DNA from: an uncultured Acidiferrobacterales bacterium
Lineage (GTDB): Bacteria; Pseudomonadota; Gammaproteobacteria; Acidiferrobacterales; UBA6901
Assembly (NCBI GenBank): GCA_964355495.1
Contig: CAYHES010000004.1
Coordinates: forward strand, 1-44,434
DNA length: 44,434 nucleotides
Reading direction: 5' to 3'
In this document: in pieces, positions 4,124-44,396 of the stretch
How the letters are laid out: each line of letters opens with the position of its first letter
Numbering within the stretch: position 1 is the stretch's first letter
The notes under the pieces: generated by a model
What the model was told of the DNA's origin: nothing
Database searches by the model: none
What the model saw: the letters and a program-made list of their open reading frames with translations, nothing else
Translations under genes and position numbers: made by a program

Positions 4124-4937
<814 letters not shown>

Positions 4938-27330: not shown

Positions 27331-27420
27331 TAGGACTTTGAATTGTGCCCGCTCACAAAGGCGTGCAGCACTCGAAGCTTGCCCCGGCATGTTTTAAGCC
27401 GGGGCGGTGCTCAGGAATCA

Positions 27421-27592
27421 AAATCAATGGTTTCAGAGACATCCTGGATTCCGGCTTTCGCCGGAATGACGAAGCCCGATGTTTCGGTGCATTTTTCAAC
27501 AGCTCTGTTAGAGCATGACATGGTGTTGGTCCTTGTTGGGCGGAAAAACTGCTCCTGCGTTTTCCGCACTTCCGCCATCCATGGCGGTCGCC
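27421..27592. repeat. composite repeat: module B (27421-27513, attccggctttcgccggaat core) plus inverted module A (27542-27592)
   Basis: Module B is close to 33674-33766. Module A is the reverse complement of 33611-33660 and 7492-7540. Confidence 0.8.
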
Positions 27593-33580: not shown

Positions 33581-33768
33581 GTTGTTGAAAAAAGGGCTCG
33601 TCACACCGGCGCGACCGCCATGGATGGCGGAAGTACTGGAAACGCAGGAGCAGTTTCCGGTGCAAGCCGGTGTCCAGGAATTAAAATCAAGGGTTTCATC
33701 GACATCCTGGATTCCGGCTTTCGCCGGAATGACGAAGCTTGATGTTTCGTTGTGTTTTTCAACACCCT
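33581..33768. repeat. composite repeat element (module A 33611-33660 + module B 33674-33766) bounded by short inverted ends gttgttgaaaaa / tttttcaacac
   Basis: Same modules as at 27421-27592 but with opposite relative orientation. It occupies almost the whole DUF2063-DoxX spacer. Confidence 0.75.
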
Positions 33769-39039: not shown

Positions 39040-41493
39040 GTGGTCGGGAAAGGATGGGGTAAACTCGATAAAAACAAGTTTGTTTCATTTCCACCGATAT
39101 CTTCCTGGGGAGCGGATTCCGCTTTGAACGAGGCCGATACCTGCCGCCGGTTGGTGGTGCCCAAGCTGCAAGTGGCCGGCTGGGACAACGAACCGCATTC
39201 GATCGCCGAGCAACGCACCGTCACCGATGGGCGTATCGTGCCGGTCGGCAAGGGCTTCATCCGCAAACCACCCAAGCGCGTGGATTACCTGCTGCGCTAC
39301 ACGCGCGACTTCCCGCTCGCCGTGGTTGAGGCCAAAGCGGGCTATAAATCCGCCGCAGACGGAATGCAGCAGGCCAGGCAGTACGCCGAGATGCTGGACT
39401 TGAAGTTTGCCTATGCGACGAATGGGCGCGAAATAATCGAGTTCGACTATTTTACGGGTCGCGAGATACCCGTTACGGACTATCCGACACCGGCTCAGCT
39501 CTGGCAGCGTTACCGCACCGGCAGCGGCGTCAAGGATCAGCAAGCCGCCGAGCGCCTGCTTACGCCCTTCAATCACGCCGTCGGCAAGGGCGAGCGTTAC
39601 TACCAACAAATCGCCATCAACCGTACGATCGAGGCTATTCTGAAGGAGCAGCGGCGTCTGCTCATTACGATGGCGACCGGCACGGGCAAGACGGTCGTGG
39701 CCTTTCAAATCTGCTGGAAGCTGTGGAACGCCCGCTGGAACCGCACCGGCGATCACCGCCGTCCGCGCATTCTCTATCTCGCGGACCGCAACATTCTGGT
39801 GGATCAACCGAAGGATGGCATATTCGCGGCCTTCGGCGATGCGCGCTACAAGATCGAATTCGGCGAAGTCGTTCAGAGCCGCGAGATGTACTTCGCCATC
39901 TATCAGGCGCTGGCCGAGGACGAGCGGCGTGCCGGTCTGTTCAGGGCCTATGCGCCGGATTTCTTCGACCTCGTGATTGTGGACGAATGCCACCGCGGCA
40001 GCGCGCGTGACGACAGCGCTTGGCGCAGCATCCTTGATTACTTCGAGCCCGCGGTGCAGCTCGGCATGACGGCTACTCCGTTGCGCGAAGAAAGCCGCGA
40101 CACTTATCTCTATTTCGGCAACCCGATCTACGAATACAGTCTGCGCCAGGGCATCGAGGACGGCTTCCTCGCGCCATATCGCGTGCATCGGGTCATTACC
40201 GAATGGGACGCCGCCGGCTGGCGCCCTAGCAGGGATGAGCTGGACCGCTATGGTCGCGCCATCCCTGACGATGAATACCAGACCAAGGATTTCGAGCGGG
40301 CCGTGGCATTGCGTGCCCGCACCGAAACCATCGCGCGCCACCTCACCGACTTCCTCAAAAAGACCGATCGCTTCGCCAAGACCATCGTCTTCTGCGTGGA
40401 TCAGGAACACGCCAGCGAAATGCGCCAAGCTCTGAACAATCTCAATAATGATCTGGTTGCCCAGCACCCGGATTACGTCTGCCGCGTCACCTCCGACGAA
40501 GGCGATATCGGGCGCGGCCACCTCAGCCGCTTTCAGGACGTGGATACCCAAACACCCACGATCCTCACCACCTCGCAGTTGCTCACCACTGGCGTTGATG
40601 CGCCGACCTGCAAGAACGTGGTCCTTGCCCGCGTCATCGGTTCCATGAGCGAGTTCAAGCAGATCATCGGGCGTGGCACGCGCGTGCGCGACGACTACGG
40701 CAAGCTCTGGTTCAACATTCTCGACTACACCGGCTCGGCCACGCGCCTGTTCGCCGATCCAGATTTTGACGGCGATCCGGTGAGGCTGACCGAAGAAGAG
40801 CTAATGGCAAGCGGTGAAGTCCGCGTCATCACGGACAGCGTGCTGTATCCGGAAGGAGCGGAAGAGCAGATTGCCCACGGGCCAGAAGGTGGCGTGATGG
40901 AACCGCCTGCCGATGAGCGCCGCAAGTATTACTTCGATGGCGGCCAGGTCGAAATCGCCGCGCATCTGGTGTACGAGCTGGACCCGGACGGCAAGCAACT
41001 GCGCGTGGTGCGCTACACCGACTACGCCGTTGAGAAGATTCGTTCGCTCTGTCCCACGGCCAAAGAGTTGCGCGACCAATGGGCCGACCCCGAGCGCCGT
41101 TCAGAAATCATCCGCAGCCTGGAAGAGCGCGGCGTGAGCTTTACCGAACTGGCCGAGGCTGCCCAACAGCCCGAGGCCGACCCGTTCGATCTGTTGTGCC
41201 ATCTCGCCTTCAACGCGCCGCTGCGCACCCGCCGCGAACGGGCGCAGCGCCTGAAAAGCGAGCGCAAGGACTTCTTCGACCGTTACGGCCCCGAGGCGCG
41301 CCAGATTTTGGATGAGCTTTTGGAGAAATACGCCGAGCACGGCAACGCGCAGTTCGTCCTGCCCGATGTGCTGCACGTTCCGCCGCTTTCCGGGCACGGC
41401 ACCATCCGCGAGATCAGCGCCGCCTTCGGCGGCGCCGACAAGCTGCGGGCGGCCGTGCACGACCTGCAAAACCTGCTGTATGCCGCGTCGTGA
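39040..41493 (+). CDS. hsdR: type I restriction enzyme R subunit (HsdR, EcoEI_R_C-type)
   Basis: LNEADTCRRLVVPKLQVAGW (HsdR_N), MATGTGKT, VDECHRG, MTATP, QIIGRGTR, and a C-terminal ...PFDLLCHLAFN...FFDRYG...LLEKY EcoEI R C-terminal domain. Family N-termini usually begin right at NEADTCR, so TTG 39124 is a plausible true start. Confidence 0.9.
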   Translation: MVGKGWGKLDKNKFVSFPPISSWGADSALNEADTCRRLVVPKLQVAGWDNEPHSIAEQRTVTDGRIVPVGKGFIRKPPKRVDYLLRYTRDFPLAVVEAKAGYKSAADGMQQARQYAEMLDLKFAYATNGREIIEFDYFTGREIPVTDYPTPAQLWQRYRTGSGVKDQQAAERLLTPFNHAVGKGERYYQQIAINRTIEAILKEQRRLLITMATGTGKTVVAFQICWKLWNARWNRTGDHRRPRILYLADRNILVDQPKDGIFAAFGDARYKIEFGEVVQSREMYFAIYQALAEDERRAGLFRAYAPDFFDLVIVDECHRGSARDDSAWRSILDYFEPAVQLGMTATPLREESRDTYLYFGNPIYEYSLRQGIEDGFLAPYRVHRVITEWDAAGWRPSRDELDRYGRAIPDDEYQTKDFERAVALRARTETIARHLTDFLKKTDRFAKTIVFCVDQEHASEMRQALNNLNNDLVAQHPDYVCRVTSDEGDIGRGHLSRFQDVDTQTPTILTTSQLLTTGVDAPTCKNVVLARVIGSMSEFKQIIGRGTRVRDDYGKLWFNILDYTGSATRLFADPDFDGDPVRLTEEELMASGEVRVITDSVLYPEGAEEQIAHGPEGGVMEPPADERRKYYFDGGQVEIAAHLVYELDPDGKQLRVVRYTDYAVEKIRSLCPTAKELRDQWADPERRSEIIRSLEERGVSFTELAEAAQQPEADPFDLLCHLAFNAPLRTRRERAQRLKSERKDFFDRYGPEARQILDELLEKYAEHGNAQFVLPDVLHVPPLSGHGTIREISAAFGGADKLRAAVHDLQNLLYAAS

Positions 41494-41520
41494 AACGAGG
41501 AAGTATGTGTAAGGATGATT

Positions 41521-42041
41521 CTGGATTGCTTCGCGCCCGTTGGGCGCTCGCAATGACGAGGCTGGGTCCACCGTTCTGTCATTGCGAGGAGGGCGCGGCC
41601 CGACGAAGCAATCCAGCCATCAGCCAGAACCCATTGCACGAATCCTGGTGGGGCCCATGAAACAGCCATGCGTTTACATCATGGCAAGCCAACGAAACGG
41701 CACGCTGTATACGGGAGTCACTTCAAACCTCGTTCAGCGCGTCTACCAGCACAAGGAAAGTCTGGCGGAGGGTTTCACCTGCAAATACGGTTGCAAGATG
41801 CTGGTTTGGTACGAGCCGCACGAAACGATGGAAAGCGCCATCCAGAGGGAGAAACAGATCAAAGCGGGAAGTCGTGCGAAAAAGCTGGCGCGGATTGAGG
41901 CCGCAAATCCGGCATGGCGGGATTTGTACGATGAGATCGTATAGCTTGGATTGCTTCGCGCCCTTCGGTCGCTCGCAATGACGGGGCTGCATCAGCCGTT
42001 GCGTCATTGCGAGGAGGGCGGAGCCCGACGAAGCAATCCAG
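41521..42041 (+). mobile_element. candidate mini-cassette: hairpin repeat, GIY-YIG gene, hairpin repeat
   Basis: Two direct ~96-nt nested-palindrome repeats (41521-41616 and 41945-42041, about 12 mismatches by eye) immediately bracket one small nuclease ORF inside the hsdR-hsdM spacer. Confidence 0.4.
41657..41944 (+). CDS. GIY-YIG nuclease-family protein (UPF0213-like, 95 aa)
   Basis: CVYIMASQRNGTLYTGVTSNLVQRVYQHK...KMLVWYE...AIQREKQIKAGSRAKK, a GIY / YxG / R / E pattern of the small stand-alone GIY-YIG proteins. Confidence 0.85.
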   Translation: MKQPCVYIMASQRNGTLYTGVTSNLVQRVYQHKESLAEGFTCKYGCKMLVWYEPHETMESAIQREKQIKAGSRAKKLARIEAANPAWRDLYDEIV

Positions 42042-42096
42042 AAACAGCCCGGAAGCTTCCCGGAAACATCCAATATAGAGCGAGAGAACACGCGTA

Positions 42097-43671
42097 ATGC
42101 CCCGAACCAAGAAAACCAAAGCGATGGCGGACAAACCCCAGACCACCGCCCAGTCCCTCGGCAGCCTGATCAAGTCCGCGCGCGACATCATGCGCAAGGA
42201 CAAGGGCCTGAACGGCGATCTCGACCGCCTGCCGATGCTCACCTGGATCATGTTCCTCAAGTTTCTGGACGATCTGGAGATGCAGCGCAAGGACGAAGCC
42301 GACCTGGCCGGCACGAAATTCCGCCCGGCTGTCGAGAAACCTTACCGCTGGCGCGACTGGGCGGCGCAGGCCGATGGCATTACCGGCGATGAGTTGCTCG
42401 CGTTCATCAATCAGGACAAGTGCCGGCGGCCGGATGGAACCAAAGGCGCCGGTCTGTTCGCCTATCTGCGCAATCTCACGAGTTCCAACGGTGACAACCG
42501 CCGCGATGTGATCGCCACCGTGTTCAAGGGCGTGGACAACCGCATGAAGAGCGGTTACCTGCTTCGCGATGTGATCAACAAGGTGAACGGCATCCATTTC
42601 ACCGCCAGCGACGAGCTGCATACCTTGGGTAGCCTGTACGAATCCATGCTGCGCGAGATGCGCGACGCGGCCGGCGATTCCGGTGAGTTCTACACGCCGC
42701 GCGCGGTGGTGCGTTTCATGGTCGATGCGGTCGATCCACGGCTTGGCGAAACCGTGCTCGACCCGGCCTGCGGCACCGGCGGGTTCCTGGTCGAGGTATT
42801 CAGTCACTTGAGCCGGCAGGTGAAGACCGTTGCCGACCGAAAGCTGCTCCAGACACGCTCGGTCACTGGCTACGAGGCCAAGCCGCTGCCGTACCTGCTG
42901 GCGCAGATGAACCTGCTGCTGCACGGGCTCGACGCGCCACAGATCGACCCCGGCAACGCGTTGCGCTTCAAACTTACCGAGATCGGCGAGAAGGAGCGCG
43001 TAAACGTGATCCTCACCAACCCGCCGTTCGGCGGCGAGGAAGAAAAGGGTATCCAGGGCAACTTTCCCGAAGACCGCCAGACTGCTGAAACCGCGCTGCT
43101 GTTCCTGCAACTCATCATGCGCCGGCTCAAGAAAAACCCCTCTCCCTCTGGAAGAGGGGCGGGGGCGAGGGCCGCGCGCGCCGCCGTGGTTGTTCCTAAC
43201 GGCATGTTGTTCGGCGACGGCGTCTGCGCCCGCGTCAAGGAAGAACTGCTCAAGGACTATAACCTCCACACCATCGTGCGCCTGCCCAACGGTGTGTTCG
43301 CGCCGTACACCAGCATTCCGACCAACCTCCTATTCTTCGACCGCGCCGGTCCGACCAAGGAGGTCTGGTACTACGAACAGCCATTGCCAGAAGGCCGCAA
43401 GAACTACACCAAAACCCAGCCGCTCCAGTTCGAGGAATTCAAGCCGTGCCTCGAATGGTGGAGCAAGCGGGAGGAAAACGATCGCGCCTGGAAAGTGAAT
43501 GCCGAAGAACTGCTCGCCAACAACTGCAACCTCGACCGCAAGAACCCGCGCGGCAAAGTGGACTTCGAGCACCTTCCGCCGGAACAGCTTGCCGATGACA
43601 TCTTGAAGAAGGAACAGCGCATTGCCAAGATCATGGCGGAGATCAAGATTCTGCTGGTGCAGAAGGTGTGA
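42097..43671 (+). CDS. hsdM: type I restriction-modification N6-adenine DNA methyltransferase (HsdM)
   Basis: HsdM_N region (SLIKSARDIMRKDKGL...LTWIMFLKFLDD), FYTPRAVVRFMV, DPACGTGGFL, LTNPPFGG. It contains an in-frame REP family 1 copy at 43137-43171. Confidence 0.9.
   Translation: MPRTKKTKAMADKPQTTAQSLGSLIKSARDIMRKDKGLNGDLDRLPMLTWIMFLKFLDDLEMQRKDEADLAGTKFRPAVEKPYRWRDWAAQADGITGDELLAFINQDKCRRPDGTKGAGLFAYLRNLTSSNGDNRRDVIATVFKGVDNRMKSGYLLRDVINKVNGIHFTASDELHTLGSLYESMLREMRDAAGDSGEFYTPRAVVRFMVDAVDPRLGETVLDPACGTGGFLVEVFSHLSRQVKTVADRKLLQTRSVTGYEAKPLPYLLAQMNLLLHGLDAPQIDPGNALRFKLTEIGEKERVNVILTNPPFGGEEEKGIQGNFPEDRQTAETALLFLQLIMRRLKKNPSPSGRGAGARAARAAVVVPNGMLFGDGVCARVKEELLKDYNLHTIVRLPNGVFAPYTSIPTNLLFFDRAGPTKEVWYYEQPLPEGRKNYTKTQPLQFEEFKPCLEWWSKREENDRAWKVNAEELLANNCNLDRKNPRGKVDFEHLPPEQLADDILKKEQRIAKIMAEIKILLVQKV
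43137..43171. repeat. REP family 1 copy inside the hsdM coding sequence
   Basis: cccctctccctctggaagaggggcgggggcgaggg, translated in frame as PSPSGRGAGAR. Confidence 0.8.
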
Positions 43672-43673
43672 GC

Positions 43674-44396
43674 ATGGCGTGGCCGAAAGTGCGGTTGAGC
43701 GAAGTTCTTACGCATCGTAAGGAGTTCGTGACCATCGACGACCTCCAAACTTACAAGCGCCCACGCGTTCAGTTGCACGCTCAGGGAATCGTGTTGCGGG
43801 ATGAAGTACCCGGCGCACTCATCAAAACAAAGAAACAACAACCTTGTCGCGCAGGCGAGTTTCTCGTTGCCGAGATTGACGCGAAAGTTGGCGGCTTTGG
43901 CATCGTGCCGTCGTCACTCGACGGTTCCATCGTCAGCAGTCACTACTTTCTGTTCATCATTGATGAGACAAAACTCGACCGGCGGTTCCTCGATTTCTTC
44001 ATCCGCACGCCAGCGTTTCGCGAGCAGGTCGCGGCACAAGGGTCAACGAACTACGCAGCGATTCGACCTGCGCATGTGCTTGGCTACGAAATCCCCCTGC
44101 CACCGTTGGCCGAACAGCGGCGCATCGTTGCGCGTATCGAAGCACTGGCCACTAATATCTCCGAAGCCCGTTCCCTTCGCCAGCAGGCCGTCGAGGAAAC
44201 CGAAGCGCTTTGGGAACGCGGCGCATCCAAGATTTTCGACAGAGCCGCGGAGACAAATCCCATCCGGCCACTCATAGACCTCGTGGCAATTCGTGGTGGA
44301 GGAACGCCATCGAAGTCCGACCCATTCTACTGGGAAGGCGCAATTCCATGGATTACGCCCAAGGACATGAAGCGTCGCGAGCTTAGTCGGTGTTAA
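43674..44396 (+). CDS. hsdS: type I R-M specificity subunit HsdS, truncated early in its second target-recognition domain
   Basis: TRD1, then the conserved helix PLPPLAEQRRIVARIEALATNISEARSLRQQAVEETEALW, then the start of TRD2 (GGGTPSKSDPFYWEGAIPWITPKDM). It stops abruptly at KRRELSRC-TAA-TAA, followed by AT-rich sequence. The start overlaps the hsdM stop region (GTG 43668 or ATG 43674). Confidence 0.8.
   Translation: MAWPKVRLSEVLTHRKEFVTIDDLQTYKRPRVQLHAQGIVLRDEVPGALIKTKKQQPCRAGEFLVAEIDAKVGGFGIVPSSLDGSIVSSHYFLFIIDETKLDRRFLDFFIRTPAFREQVAAQGSTNYAAIRPAHVLGYEIPLPPLAEQRRIVARIEALATNISEARSLRQQAVEETEALWERGASKIFDRAAETNPIRPLIDLVAIRGGGTPSKSDPFYWEGAIPWITPKDMKRRELSRC

Follow-up and report, generated by a model that had tools for sequence, protein, structure and literature searches.

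Single-domain GIY-YIG nucleases of the Ssn type (cd10448, ∼94 amino acids (aa)) were described in 2025 by Chenal et al. (PMC11893778), who found that these proteins bind a hairpin repeat, NTS (CGTCATTCCCGCGMAVGCGGGAATCYRG) or more generally the Ssn-related motif (SRM), only when it is presented as single-stranded DNA (ssDNA). Here we analyze a 44,434-nucleotide (nt) stretch from an uncultured Acidiferrobacterales bacterium (assembly GCA_964355495.1, contig CAYHES010000004.1), referred to as the window in what follows, in which the hsdR and hsdM genes of a type I restriction-modification (R-M) operon are separated by a 603-nt spacer. This spacer very probably holds an Ssn–SRM cassette, that is, a gene for an Ssn-family ssDNA nuclease, which we call ssn, placed between head-to-head pairs of cognate hairpin repeats of the NTS/SRM class.

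Four Ssn enzymes have been characterized. Cleavage occurs a few nucleotides 5' of the repeat and, in the case of Neisseria meningitidis (Nm) SsnA, 5' of the CGTC head of NTS; double-stranded DNA (dsDNA) is neither bound nor cut, RNA and the reverse strand are likewise not cleaved, and mutating Y6, Y17 and E64 abolishes cleavage by Nm SsnA (PMC11893778). The repeats have been written in the form CGTCATT...AATCYRG for NTS and searched for with the degenerate sequence HGTCWYN(0-2)YYVSBRHN(0-5)WNVSBRGN(0-2)RNCYNB for SRM. With homologues defined by E < 1e-10 to SsnA, an SRM lies near the gene in 71% of cases and on both sides of it in 42%. In Neisseria SsnA provides a mechanism of ssDNA restriction during transformation, and the NTS-ssnA-NTS arrangement was likened by the authors to an insertion sequence and to the transposases associated with repetitive extragenic palindromes (REPs), although mobility was not shown there (PMC11893778).

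A second group of repeats is equally relevant. In the CGTC-tagged REPs defined by Di Nocera et al. (2013), a head reading CGTC or TGTC is combined with a stem that starts with AT and an unpaired CCA tail, and most copies are organized as inverted dimers; these REPs include dRS3 of Neisseria and RPE-4 and RPE-6 of Rickettsia, predominate in Alphaproteobacteria and were reported without a dedicated enzyme (PMC3733652). The 2013 and 2025 papers do not cite one another, yet the CGTC-tagged REPs of the former and the Ssn-related motifs of the latter appear to be one class of repeat. The original prediction for this locus, made from the DNA letters, took the nuclease and its hairpins for a self-contained selfish unit. 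Ssn genes with flanking hairpins were published in 2025 together with the biochemistry of ssDNA cleavage (PMC11893778), and the element is thus not of an undescribed kind: the cassette is a further example of the Ssn kind and not an unknown element.

A nuclease gene between paired hairpin repeats

The ssn product consists of a GIY-YIG domain alone, with the Pfam match spanning residues 4-76 of its 95 amino acids and no second family match, so that both size and domain content are those of the Ssn family. It has at least 7991 homologues at E <= 1e-5 (8000 scored), and among the 120 matches listed nearly all are 95-100 aa in length. Three residues, Y7 (in VYI), Y18 (in LYTG) and E65 (in REKQIK), are conserved in all six copies that were compared and match Y6, Y17 and E64 of Nm SsnA by position with a shift of one, a correspondence drawn without an alignment to SsnA itself. 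No model matching the 95-aa protein was found in NCBIfam, PADLOC or PHROGs, and a search of the PDB returned only a weak match to the UPF0213 structure 1zg2 (E = 0.0097).

The 603-nt spacer (hsdR stops at 41493, hsdM begins at 42097) does contain, as predicted, the GIY-YIG open reading frame (ORF) between two long repeats in direct orientation. These are 95 nt each rather than ∼96 (41522-41616 and 41947-42041) and 87% identical, with ∼12 mismatches, and the second one lies 1-2 nt from the ssn stop codon (41942-41944), again in keeping with the prediction. The nested palindromes noted at the outset were borne out as well. The outer arms CTGGATTGCTTCG/CGAAGCAATCCAG and the inner arms CTCGCAATGAC(G)/(C)GTCATTGCGAG, the latter of 11-12 nt, are both 100% complementary; across the window there are 4 copies of the inner-arm word where chance predicts 0.45, and 6 of the outer-arm word where it predicts 0.97, with up to one mismatch allowed for the latter and all four of its exact matches inside the two repeats. 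Folding goes far beyond that of shuffled sequences, with RNA energies of -55 to -61.5 kcal/mol for each repeat on either strand (z = -5.4 to -7.3) and DNA energies, calculated for the + strand only, of ∼-35 kcal/mol (z = -6.1).

While the palindromic description is correct, each 95-nt repeat is better seen as a head-to-head pair of inverted units of ∼38-40 nt, with the heads facing one another across an 18-nt spacer, so that the gene is flanked by oriented hairpin repeats, two units on each side. The unit can be written as CGTCATTGCGAG-(variable hairpin)-CGAAGCAATCCAG, with (C/T)GTCATTGCGAG as the variant of the head, and runs from a CGTC head through a first stem ATTGC/GCAAT, an internal loop that is asymmetric (GA/GAA) and a second, variable stem to a CCAG tail. 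The second stem differs among copies in both sequence and length and keeps its self-complementarity through compensatory changes, with pairs such as GCCC/GGGC, CATCC/GGATG, GCTGAC/GTCAGC and TCCCGA/TCGGGA; perfect stems of at least 4 base pairs (bp) are found in 37% of the internal segments of units and in 3.9% of shuffles. As ssDNA the leftmost unit of the cassette (41521-41558) is predicted to form the ATTGC/GCAAT stem, the internal loop and a 6-bp second stem at -10.7 kcal/mol (z = -3.0), while its partner (41577-41616) has a TGTC head in place of CGTC and a hairpin energy no better than that of shuffles (z = 0.01).

Minimal units of 30 nt, present among loci L001-L206, contain GCGNAGC, mostly as GCGAAGC, a motif that is replaced in longer units by GC-rich stems of 4-8 bp. 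GCGAAGC is a classic DNA mini-hairpin of unusual stability. A structured RNA (riboswitch or ribozyme) was considered from the co-variation in the second stem and rejected as the primary reading, because units occur in both orientations as inverted dimers, the enzyme of the family acts on ssDNA and not on RNA, and an Rfam scan of 41000-42600 (E <= 10) gave no match. Integron attC sites, IS200/IS605 ends and group II intron domains have no sequence or protein correspondence here, and a fuzzy match at 40033-40071 lies inside hsdR and is due to chance.

In order to establish how closely the gene and the repeats are linked we have used 80 close homologues (62-88% identity) on contigs taken at one genome per species from Alpha-, Beta- and Gammaproteobacteria, Dehalococcoidia and Nitrospinota. 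Units of the ATTGCGAG type, to which those of the window belong, are found within 350 bp on both sides of the gene in 39 and on one side in 10 (49/80 in total). Their density is 3.28/kb within 350 bp and 0.06/kb beyond 1 kb, a 54-fold enrichment; the association between hairpins and GIY-YIG genes that the original prediction proposed to look for is therefore present, and the nuclease and its hairpins form the linked module that it described. Most of the 31 loci that lack a ATTGCGAG-type unit are flanked by canonical NTS-type units (22 match the published SRM pattern), one of them, L177 (70% protein identity), by exact copies of the NTS consensus CGTCATTCCCGCGAAAGCGGGAATCCAG, and repeats that fit the published NTS/SRM definitions flank homologues with 62-75% identity to the window protein. 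A unit head lies within 300 bp of 81 of 82 genes. In a neighbor-joining tree of the 82 proteins the type of the flanking unit follows the protein clade, so that nuclease and repeat co-vary. The sole homologue with no recognizable CGTC-type unit, L180, is flanked by a different long repeat (…cgtcgtcccagcggagggtgaa…), which may be another repeat variant.

The commonest layout is one inverted dimer on each side, with tail-to-tail dimers commoner than the head-to-head form of the window, and units are symmetric on the two sides in about half of the homologues. Outside the R-M lineage no conserved element ends were found, nucleotide similarity being confined to the ORF and the units, with linkers not conserved. 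The half-unit pattern is very widespread, occurring in at least 120 IMG/VR contigs, usually as inverted dimers in either order. Copies that lie far from an ssn gene indicate that the gene is not needed in cis and fit a dispersed repeat family that is served in trans. One IMG/VR contig of 10.4 kb (L072) has nine unit matches in 10 kb, and the eight that are listed are all on the same strand.

Table 1. Positions of the cassette and of the operon genes in the window
Feature	Coordinates	Strand	Description
hsdR	39040..41493	+	Type I restriction subunit (Pfam ResIII, EcoEI_R_C, SWI2_SNF2, HSDR_N); 5' host gene of the insertion
SRM-type unit, short form	41521..41558	-	CGTCATTGCGAG-CGCCCAACGGGCG-CGAAGCAATCCAG; left half of upstream dimer
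Upstream dimer spacer	41559..41576	.	18 nt; predicted Ssn cleavage region, both strands, from SsnA cutting 5' of the head
SRM-type unit, long form	41577..41616	+	TGTCATTGCGAG-GAGGGCGCGGCCCGA-CGAAGCAATCCAG; right half of upstream dimer
ssn	41657..41944	+	95-aa single-domain GIY-YIG nuclease (Pfam PF01541, E = 5.6e-17)
SRM-type unit, short form	41946..41983	-	Left half of downstream dimer; begins 1-2 nt past the ssn stop
Downstream dimer spacer	41984..42001	.	18 nt; second predicted cleavage region, on the same basis as the first
SRM-type unit, long form	42002..42041	+	CGTCATTGCGAG-GAGGGCGGAGCCCGA-CGAAGCAATCCAG; right half of downstream dimer
hsdM	42097..43671	+	Type I methylase (Pfam N6_Mtase, HsdM_N); 3' host gene of the insertion
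hsdS	43668..44396	+	Specificity subunit, 242 aa (Pfam Methylase_S)

Filled and empty hsdR–hsdM junctions

The original prediction regarded the cassette as an insertion into the R-M operon and suggested that junctions free of it might exist. Both points hold in a sample of 80 metagenomic loci that encode relatives of HsdM (72-93% identity), 66 of which show both genes. A GIY-YIG gene is present in 0/80 of these operons, the hsdR–hsdM spacer is at most 30 nt in 45/66, and in 33 of those 45 the start of hsdM overlaps the stop of hsdR. The closest relative of the window operon, L207 (HsdR 96.8% and HsdM 92.9% identical), is empty, with a spacer of 10 nt. At other loci the cassette occupies the same site: L121/L122 has an Ssn protein of 95% identity and three dimers where the window has two, while in L123-L126 (= L127, GCA_041695325.1) the Ssn protein is 88% identical and the upstream neighbors are different. 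The HsdR of the window shares 85% identity with its counterparts in L121 and L123, both of which are filled.

Among the three R-M-embedded copies of ssn the ratio of nonsynonymous to synonymous substitution rates (dN/dS) is 0.06-0.09 at dS of 0.4-0.6, establishing purifying selection; the gene has thus been at this site for a long time and remains functional. The repeats have been more labile. The extra dimer of L121 is a second downstream one (positions 4630-4900 of that locus), and the short and long forms of the units are strand-swapped there relative to the window, so that gains, losses or rearrangements of dimers occur over short times.

The sequences next to the cassette are mosaic. Over most of its length the hsdR of the window is L207-like (about 90-100% identity per 30-nt window), but in its last ∼24 columns it is 88-92% identical to the filled alleles and 62% identical to L207, and on the other side hsdM differs from L121 at 2 and from L207 at 6 of its first 23 nt, beyond which the window is again L207-like and shares a 6-nt indel with L207. 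The cassette must therefore have been exchanged or lost at least once by recombination near its ends. A junction motif also appears to be duplicated, reading ATGCCGCG... at the end of hsdR and ATGCCCCG... at the start of hsdM. As judged from these alignments, either the lineage of the window would have gained the cassette or L207 would have lost it. L207, which has the closest HsdR and is empty, has non-overlapping genes and a possibly duplicated junction, as would fit a deletion scar.

The junction is a hot spot for insertion in general, with more than 200 nt and unrelated ORFs in 17/66 relatives. The inserts (L207-L286) include a recurrent protein of ∼164 aa that starts with MKYKRFEDLPVWQAA, a pair of small ORFs and larger genes, and in L243 a solitary canonical SRM lies in a 121-nt hsdR–hsdM spacer. 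The junction tolerates many kinds of insert and only one of the 80 close homologues of ssn has hsd neighbors; most likely the location of the cassette in an R-M operon is incidental. The hsdS gene that ends the operon is short, at 242 aa with two terminal stop codons (390-397 aa in related operons), and either encodes a half-size HsdS or is a specificity gene that has been truncated or inactivated.

Action, movement and alternative explanations

Several observations weigh against assignment of the cassette to the Ssn–SRM kind. Membership rests on architecture, on the positions of the catalytic residues and on close homologues flanked by NTS, not on a comparison with SsnA. The degenerate SRM pattern matches none of the four cassette units, whose heads and tails agree with it and whose stems differ in sequence and length, and in the whole window it finds just the two canonical copies at 27444 and 33707, which are unrelated to those of the cassette; the published pattern is, however, a search tool and not a definition. 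Predicted hairpin energies for two of the four units are no better than those of shuffles (z about 0), and in ssDNA the hairpin of a single unit, to which the enzyme presumably binds, would face competition from pairing between the two units of its dimer (-35 kcal/mol). Only one of the 120 unit-bearing viral-contig loci listed has a GIY-YIG match, at a distance of 2.2 kb. Finally, the difference between the filled window and the empty L207 could stem from a gain in the former or from a loss in the latter. We nevertheless hold the assignment to be very probable.

By homology with the characterized Ssn enzymes, the window protein would most likely bind a unit in DNA made single-stranded by replication, transformation, conjugation or repair, and not in duplex DNA. 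It would recognize both the sequence and the hairpin of the unit and would cut about 3 nt 5' of the head. Such cuts would fall inside the two dimer spacers (41559-41576 and 41984-42001) and on both strands. It is in this sense that we infer ssDNA cleavage and its position, along with any effect on transformation or recombination and the route by which the cassette arrived. On this reading the cassette was inserted at a junction whose genes usually lie close together and often overlap, and has since been carried along with one operon lineage, with the nuclease gene staying under purifying selection.

A more far-reaching proposal, which we put forward tentatively and consider rather less likely than not to be correct, is that Ssn is the missing mobilizing enzyme of the CGTC-tagged REPs, and that cassettes and repeats spread by nicking at ssDNA hairpins, either extruded or in replicative ssDNA, followed by host-mediated copying or recombination. 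The duplicated junction motif, recombination breakpoints within ∼25 nt of the cassette and the difference in dimer number between the window (2) and L121 (3) fit such a proposal. A hydrolytic GIY-YIG enzyme cannot rejoin DNA alone, and any mobility must therefore use host functions; the statement in the original prediction that no mobility mechanism has been demonstrated for small stand-alone GIY-YIG genes still holds. What is observed regarding movement is the polymorphism of the cassette and the co-variation of nuclease and repeat, and not Ssn as the cause of movement. Were Ssn indeed the mobilizing enzyme, the filled and empty forms of the hsdR|hsdM junction would preserve a natural record of one such spread.

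Alternatively, the cassette could be kept as an accessory of the R-M system, with the nuclease adding restriction of ssDNA or with the hairpins uncoupling the expression of hsdR from that of hsdMS as terminators, attenuators or stabilizers of mRNA. Three operons separated by dS of 0.4-0.6 have kept the cassette in one position with its gene intact, extra genes are frequent at this junction in type I operons of the family, and SsnA of Neisseria does restrict ssDNA during transformation (PMC11893778). We nonetheless regard an accessory function as improbable, since hsd neighbors are so rare among homologues (1/80), the gene is absent from all 80 related metagenomic operons and PADLOC and PHROGs give no match. 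Constraint on the gene is similar wherever it is found, so that the selection noted above need not relate to R-M. The original prediction had further proposed that the cassette may terminate or insulate transcription between hsdR and hsdMS, which is unsupported because no plus-strand terminator-like or promoter-like site was found in 41300-42300 and no T-run follows either repeat.

The original prediction also compared the cassette with homing endonucleases, and a free-standing enzyme of this type would cut dsDNA at the empty hsdR|hsdM junction and have the cassette copied in by double-strand-break repair. Presence/absence polymorphism at a single site among closely related operons is what homing would produce, and the mosaic window at both ends of the cassette looks like short co-conversion tracts. 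The comparison does not fit, however, and we consider homing very unlikely: the protein has no DNA-binding domain beside its 95-aa catalytic one, 79 of the 80 close homologues are at unrelated, non-R-M sites, the genes are flanked by hairpin units (81/82) and not by a conserved target, and characterized members of the family neither bind nor cut dsDNA (PMC11893778). Equally hard to credit is a passive or decaying cluster of ordinary REP-like intergenic repeats with the GIY-YIG gene as an unrelated neighbor, for although units abound in viral contigs without a nearby GIY-YIG gene and a solitary canonical unit sits at the L243 junction, units are strongly enriched beside the gene, lie symmetrically on its two sides in about half of the homologues and co-vary in type with the protein clade.

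Other repeats in the window and known systems

The canonical NTS/SRM-type hairpins referred to above are two identical copies of CGTCATTCCGGCGAAAGCCGGAATCCAG (ATTCCGGC type) at 27444-27471 and 33707-33734, both on the minus strand, which match the SRM pattern (0 matches expected by chance) and differ in type from the cassette units. No cognate ssn gene for them is present in the window, so that the genome probably holds a second Ssn/repeat pair. Each is centered in one copy of a 97-nt direct repeat (27405-27501 and 33668-33764, 89% identical), and beside each lies one arm of a 46-nt inverted repeat (27546-27591 and 33611-33656, 93% complementary) that brackets ∼6 kb. Both sites are intergenic: a DEAD-box helicase gene precedes the first and a cold-shock gene follows it, while the second comes between a DUF2063 gene, which precedes it, and a DoxX gene. 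The 97-nt and 46-nt pairs could mark the ends of a mobile segment, result from an inversion or form a module shared by 5' untranslated regions.

The locus links the orphan CGTC-tagged REPs of 2013 with the Ssn-related motifs of 2025 and has practical consequences. The ubiquitous 95-aa proteins annotated as "GIY-YIG nuclease family proteins" and the repeats that surround them can be named Ssn and SRM; the repeats often yield spurious small ORFs. A common variant of the repeat is missed by the published pattern, and the system is thus under-counted, especially in Alphaproteobacteria and Betaproteobacteria. Co-variation between nuclease clade and repeat type is useful for picking enzyme–site pairs as ssDNA tools, and the clean filled/empty site between normally translationally coupled genes is a system for asking both how cassettes move and what paired hairpins of -35 kcal/mol (ssDNA) do to the expression of an operon.

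Of the systems already described, free-standing GIY-YIG homing endonucleases (I-TevI, SegA-G) have in common with the window cassette the GIY-YIG domain, a selfish lifestyle and presence/absence at a gene junction. They differ in carrying a DNA-binding domain and in cutting dsDNA at the empty allele, whereas the window protein has no second domain and its relatives, 79/80 of which are without hsd genes and in unrelated contexts, are tied to no single target site.

The resemblance to REP/REPIN–RAYT and IS200/IS605 systems lies in a small nuclease gene flanked by hairpin repeats that are recognized as ssDNA, repeats dispersed as inverted doublets and a module that looks single-copy and domesticated. 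The RAYT/REPIN comparison of the original prediction is in fact the analogy that was drawn by the discoverers of the Ssn family (PMC11893778). RAYTs (REP-associated tyrosine transposases) are, however, transposases of the HUH/Y1 kind; they pass through covalent intermediates, are able to rejoin DNA and have no homology to the GIY-YIG family. The HUH/Y1 domain that defines a REPtron (RAYT + REP) is absent from the window, GIY-YIG being the sole domain of the ssn product; GIY-YIG enzymes hydrolyse DNA with no known strand transfer, and an analogous cut-and-paste pathway cannot be assumed.

The window units, of the form CGTC-ATTGC...GCAAT-CCAG with one TGTC head, share with the CGTC-tagged REPs the CGTC/TGTC head, the stem that starts with AT, the unpaired CCA tail and the arrangement as inverted dimers, and Alphaproteobacteria, in which those REPs predominate, are also where most ATTGCGAG-type cassettes are found. 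The stems of those REPs are perfect palindromes of 8-9 bp with loops of 4-5 nt, in contrast to the bipartite stem of the window unit, and no dedicated enzyme was found for them in the 2013 study, whereas both here and in the Ssn paper a GIY-YIG nuclease gene is linked to the repeats.

The nearest match is Ssn/NTS itself. The window protein is likewise a single-domain GIY-YIG enzyme of ∼94-95 aa with Tyr/Tyr/Glu at equivalent positions, its units (CGTCATT...AATCCAG) share the non-palindromic flanks of NTS and lie on both sides of the gene, repeats are also dispersed elsewhere, and variants of nuclease and repeat are paired. The differences are as follows: the stem of the window unit, ATTGC-GA...GAA-GCAAT, has an internal loop and an inserted variable hairpin where NTS is a perfect ATTCCCGC/GCGGGAAT palindrome, the units are head-to-head dimers with 18-nt spacers, and the cassette lies inside a type I R-M operon, a context that is absent from the published account (PMC11893778).

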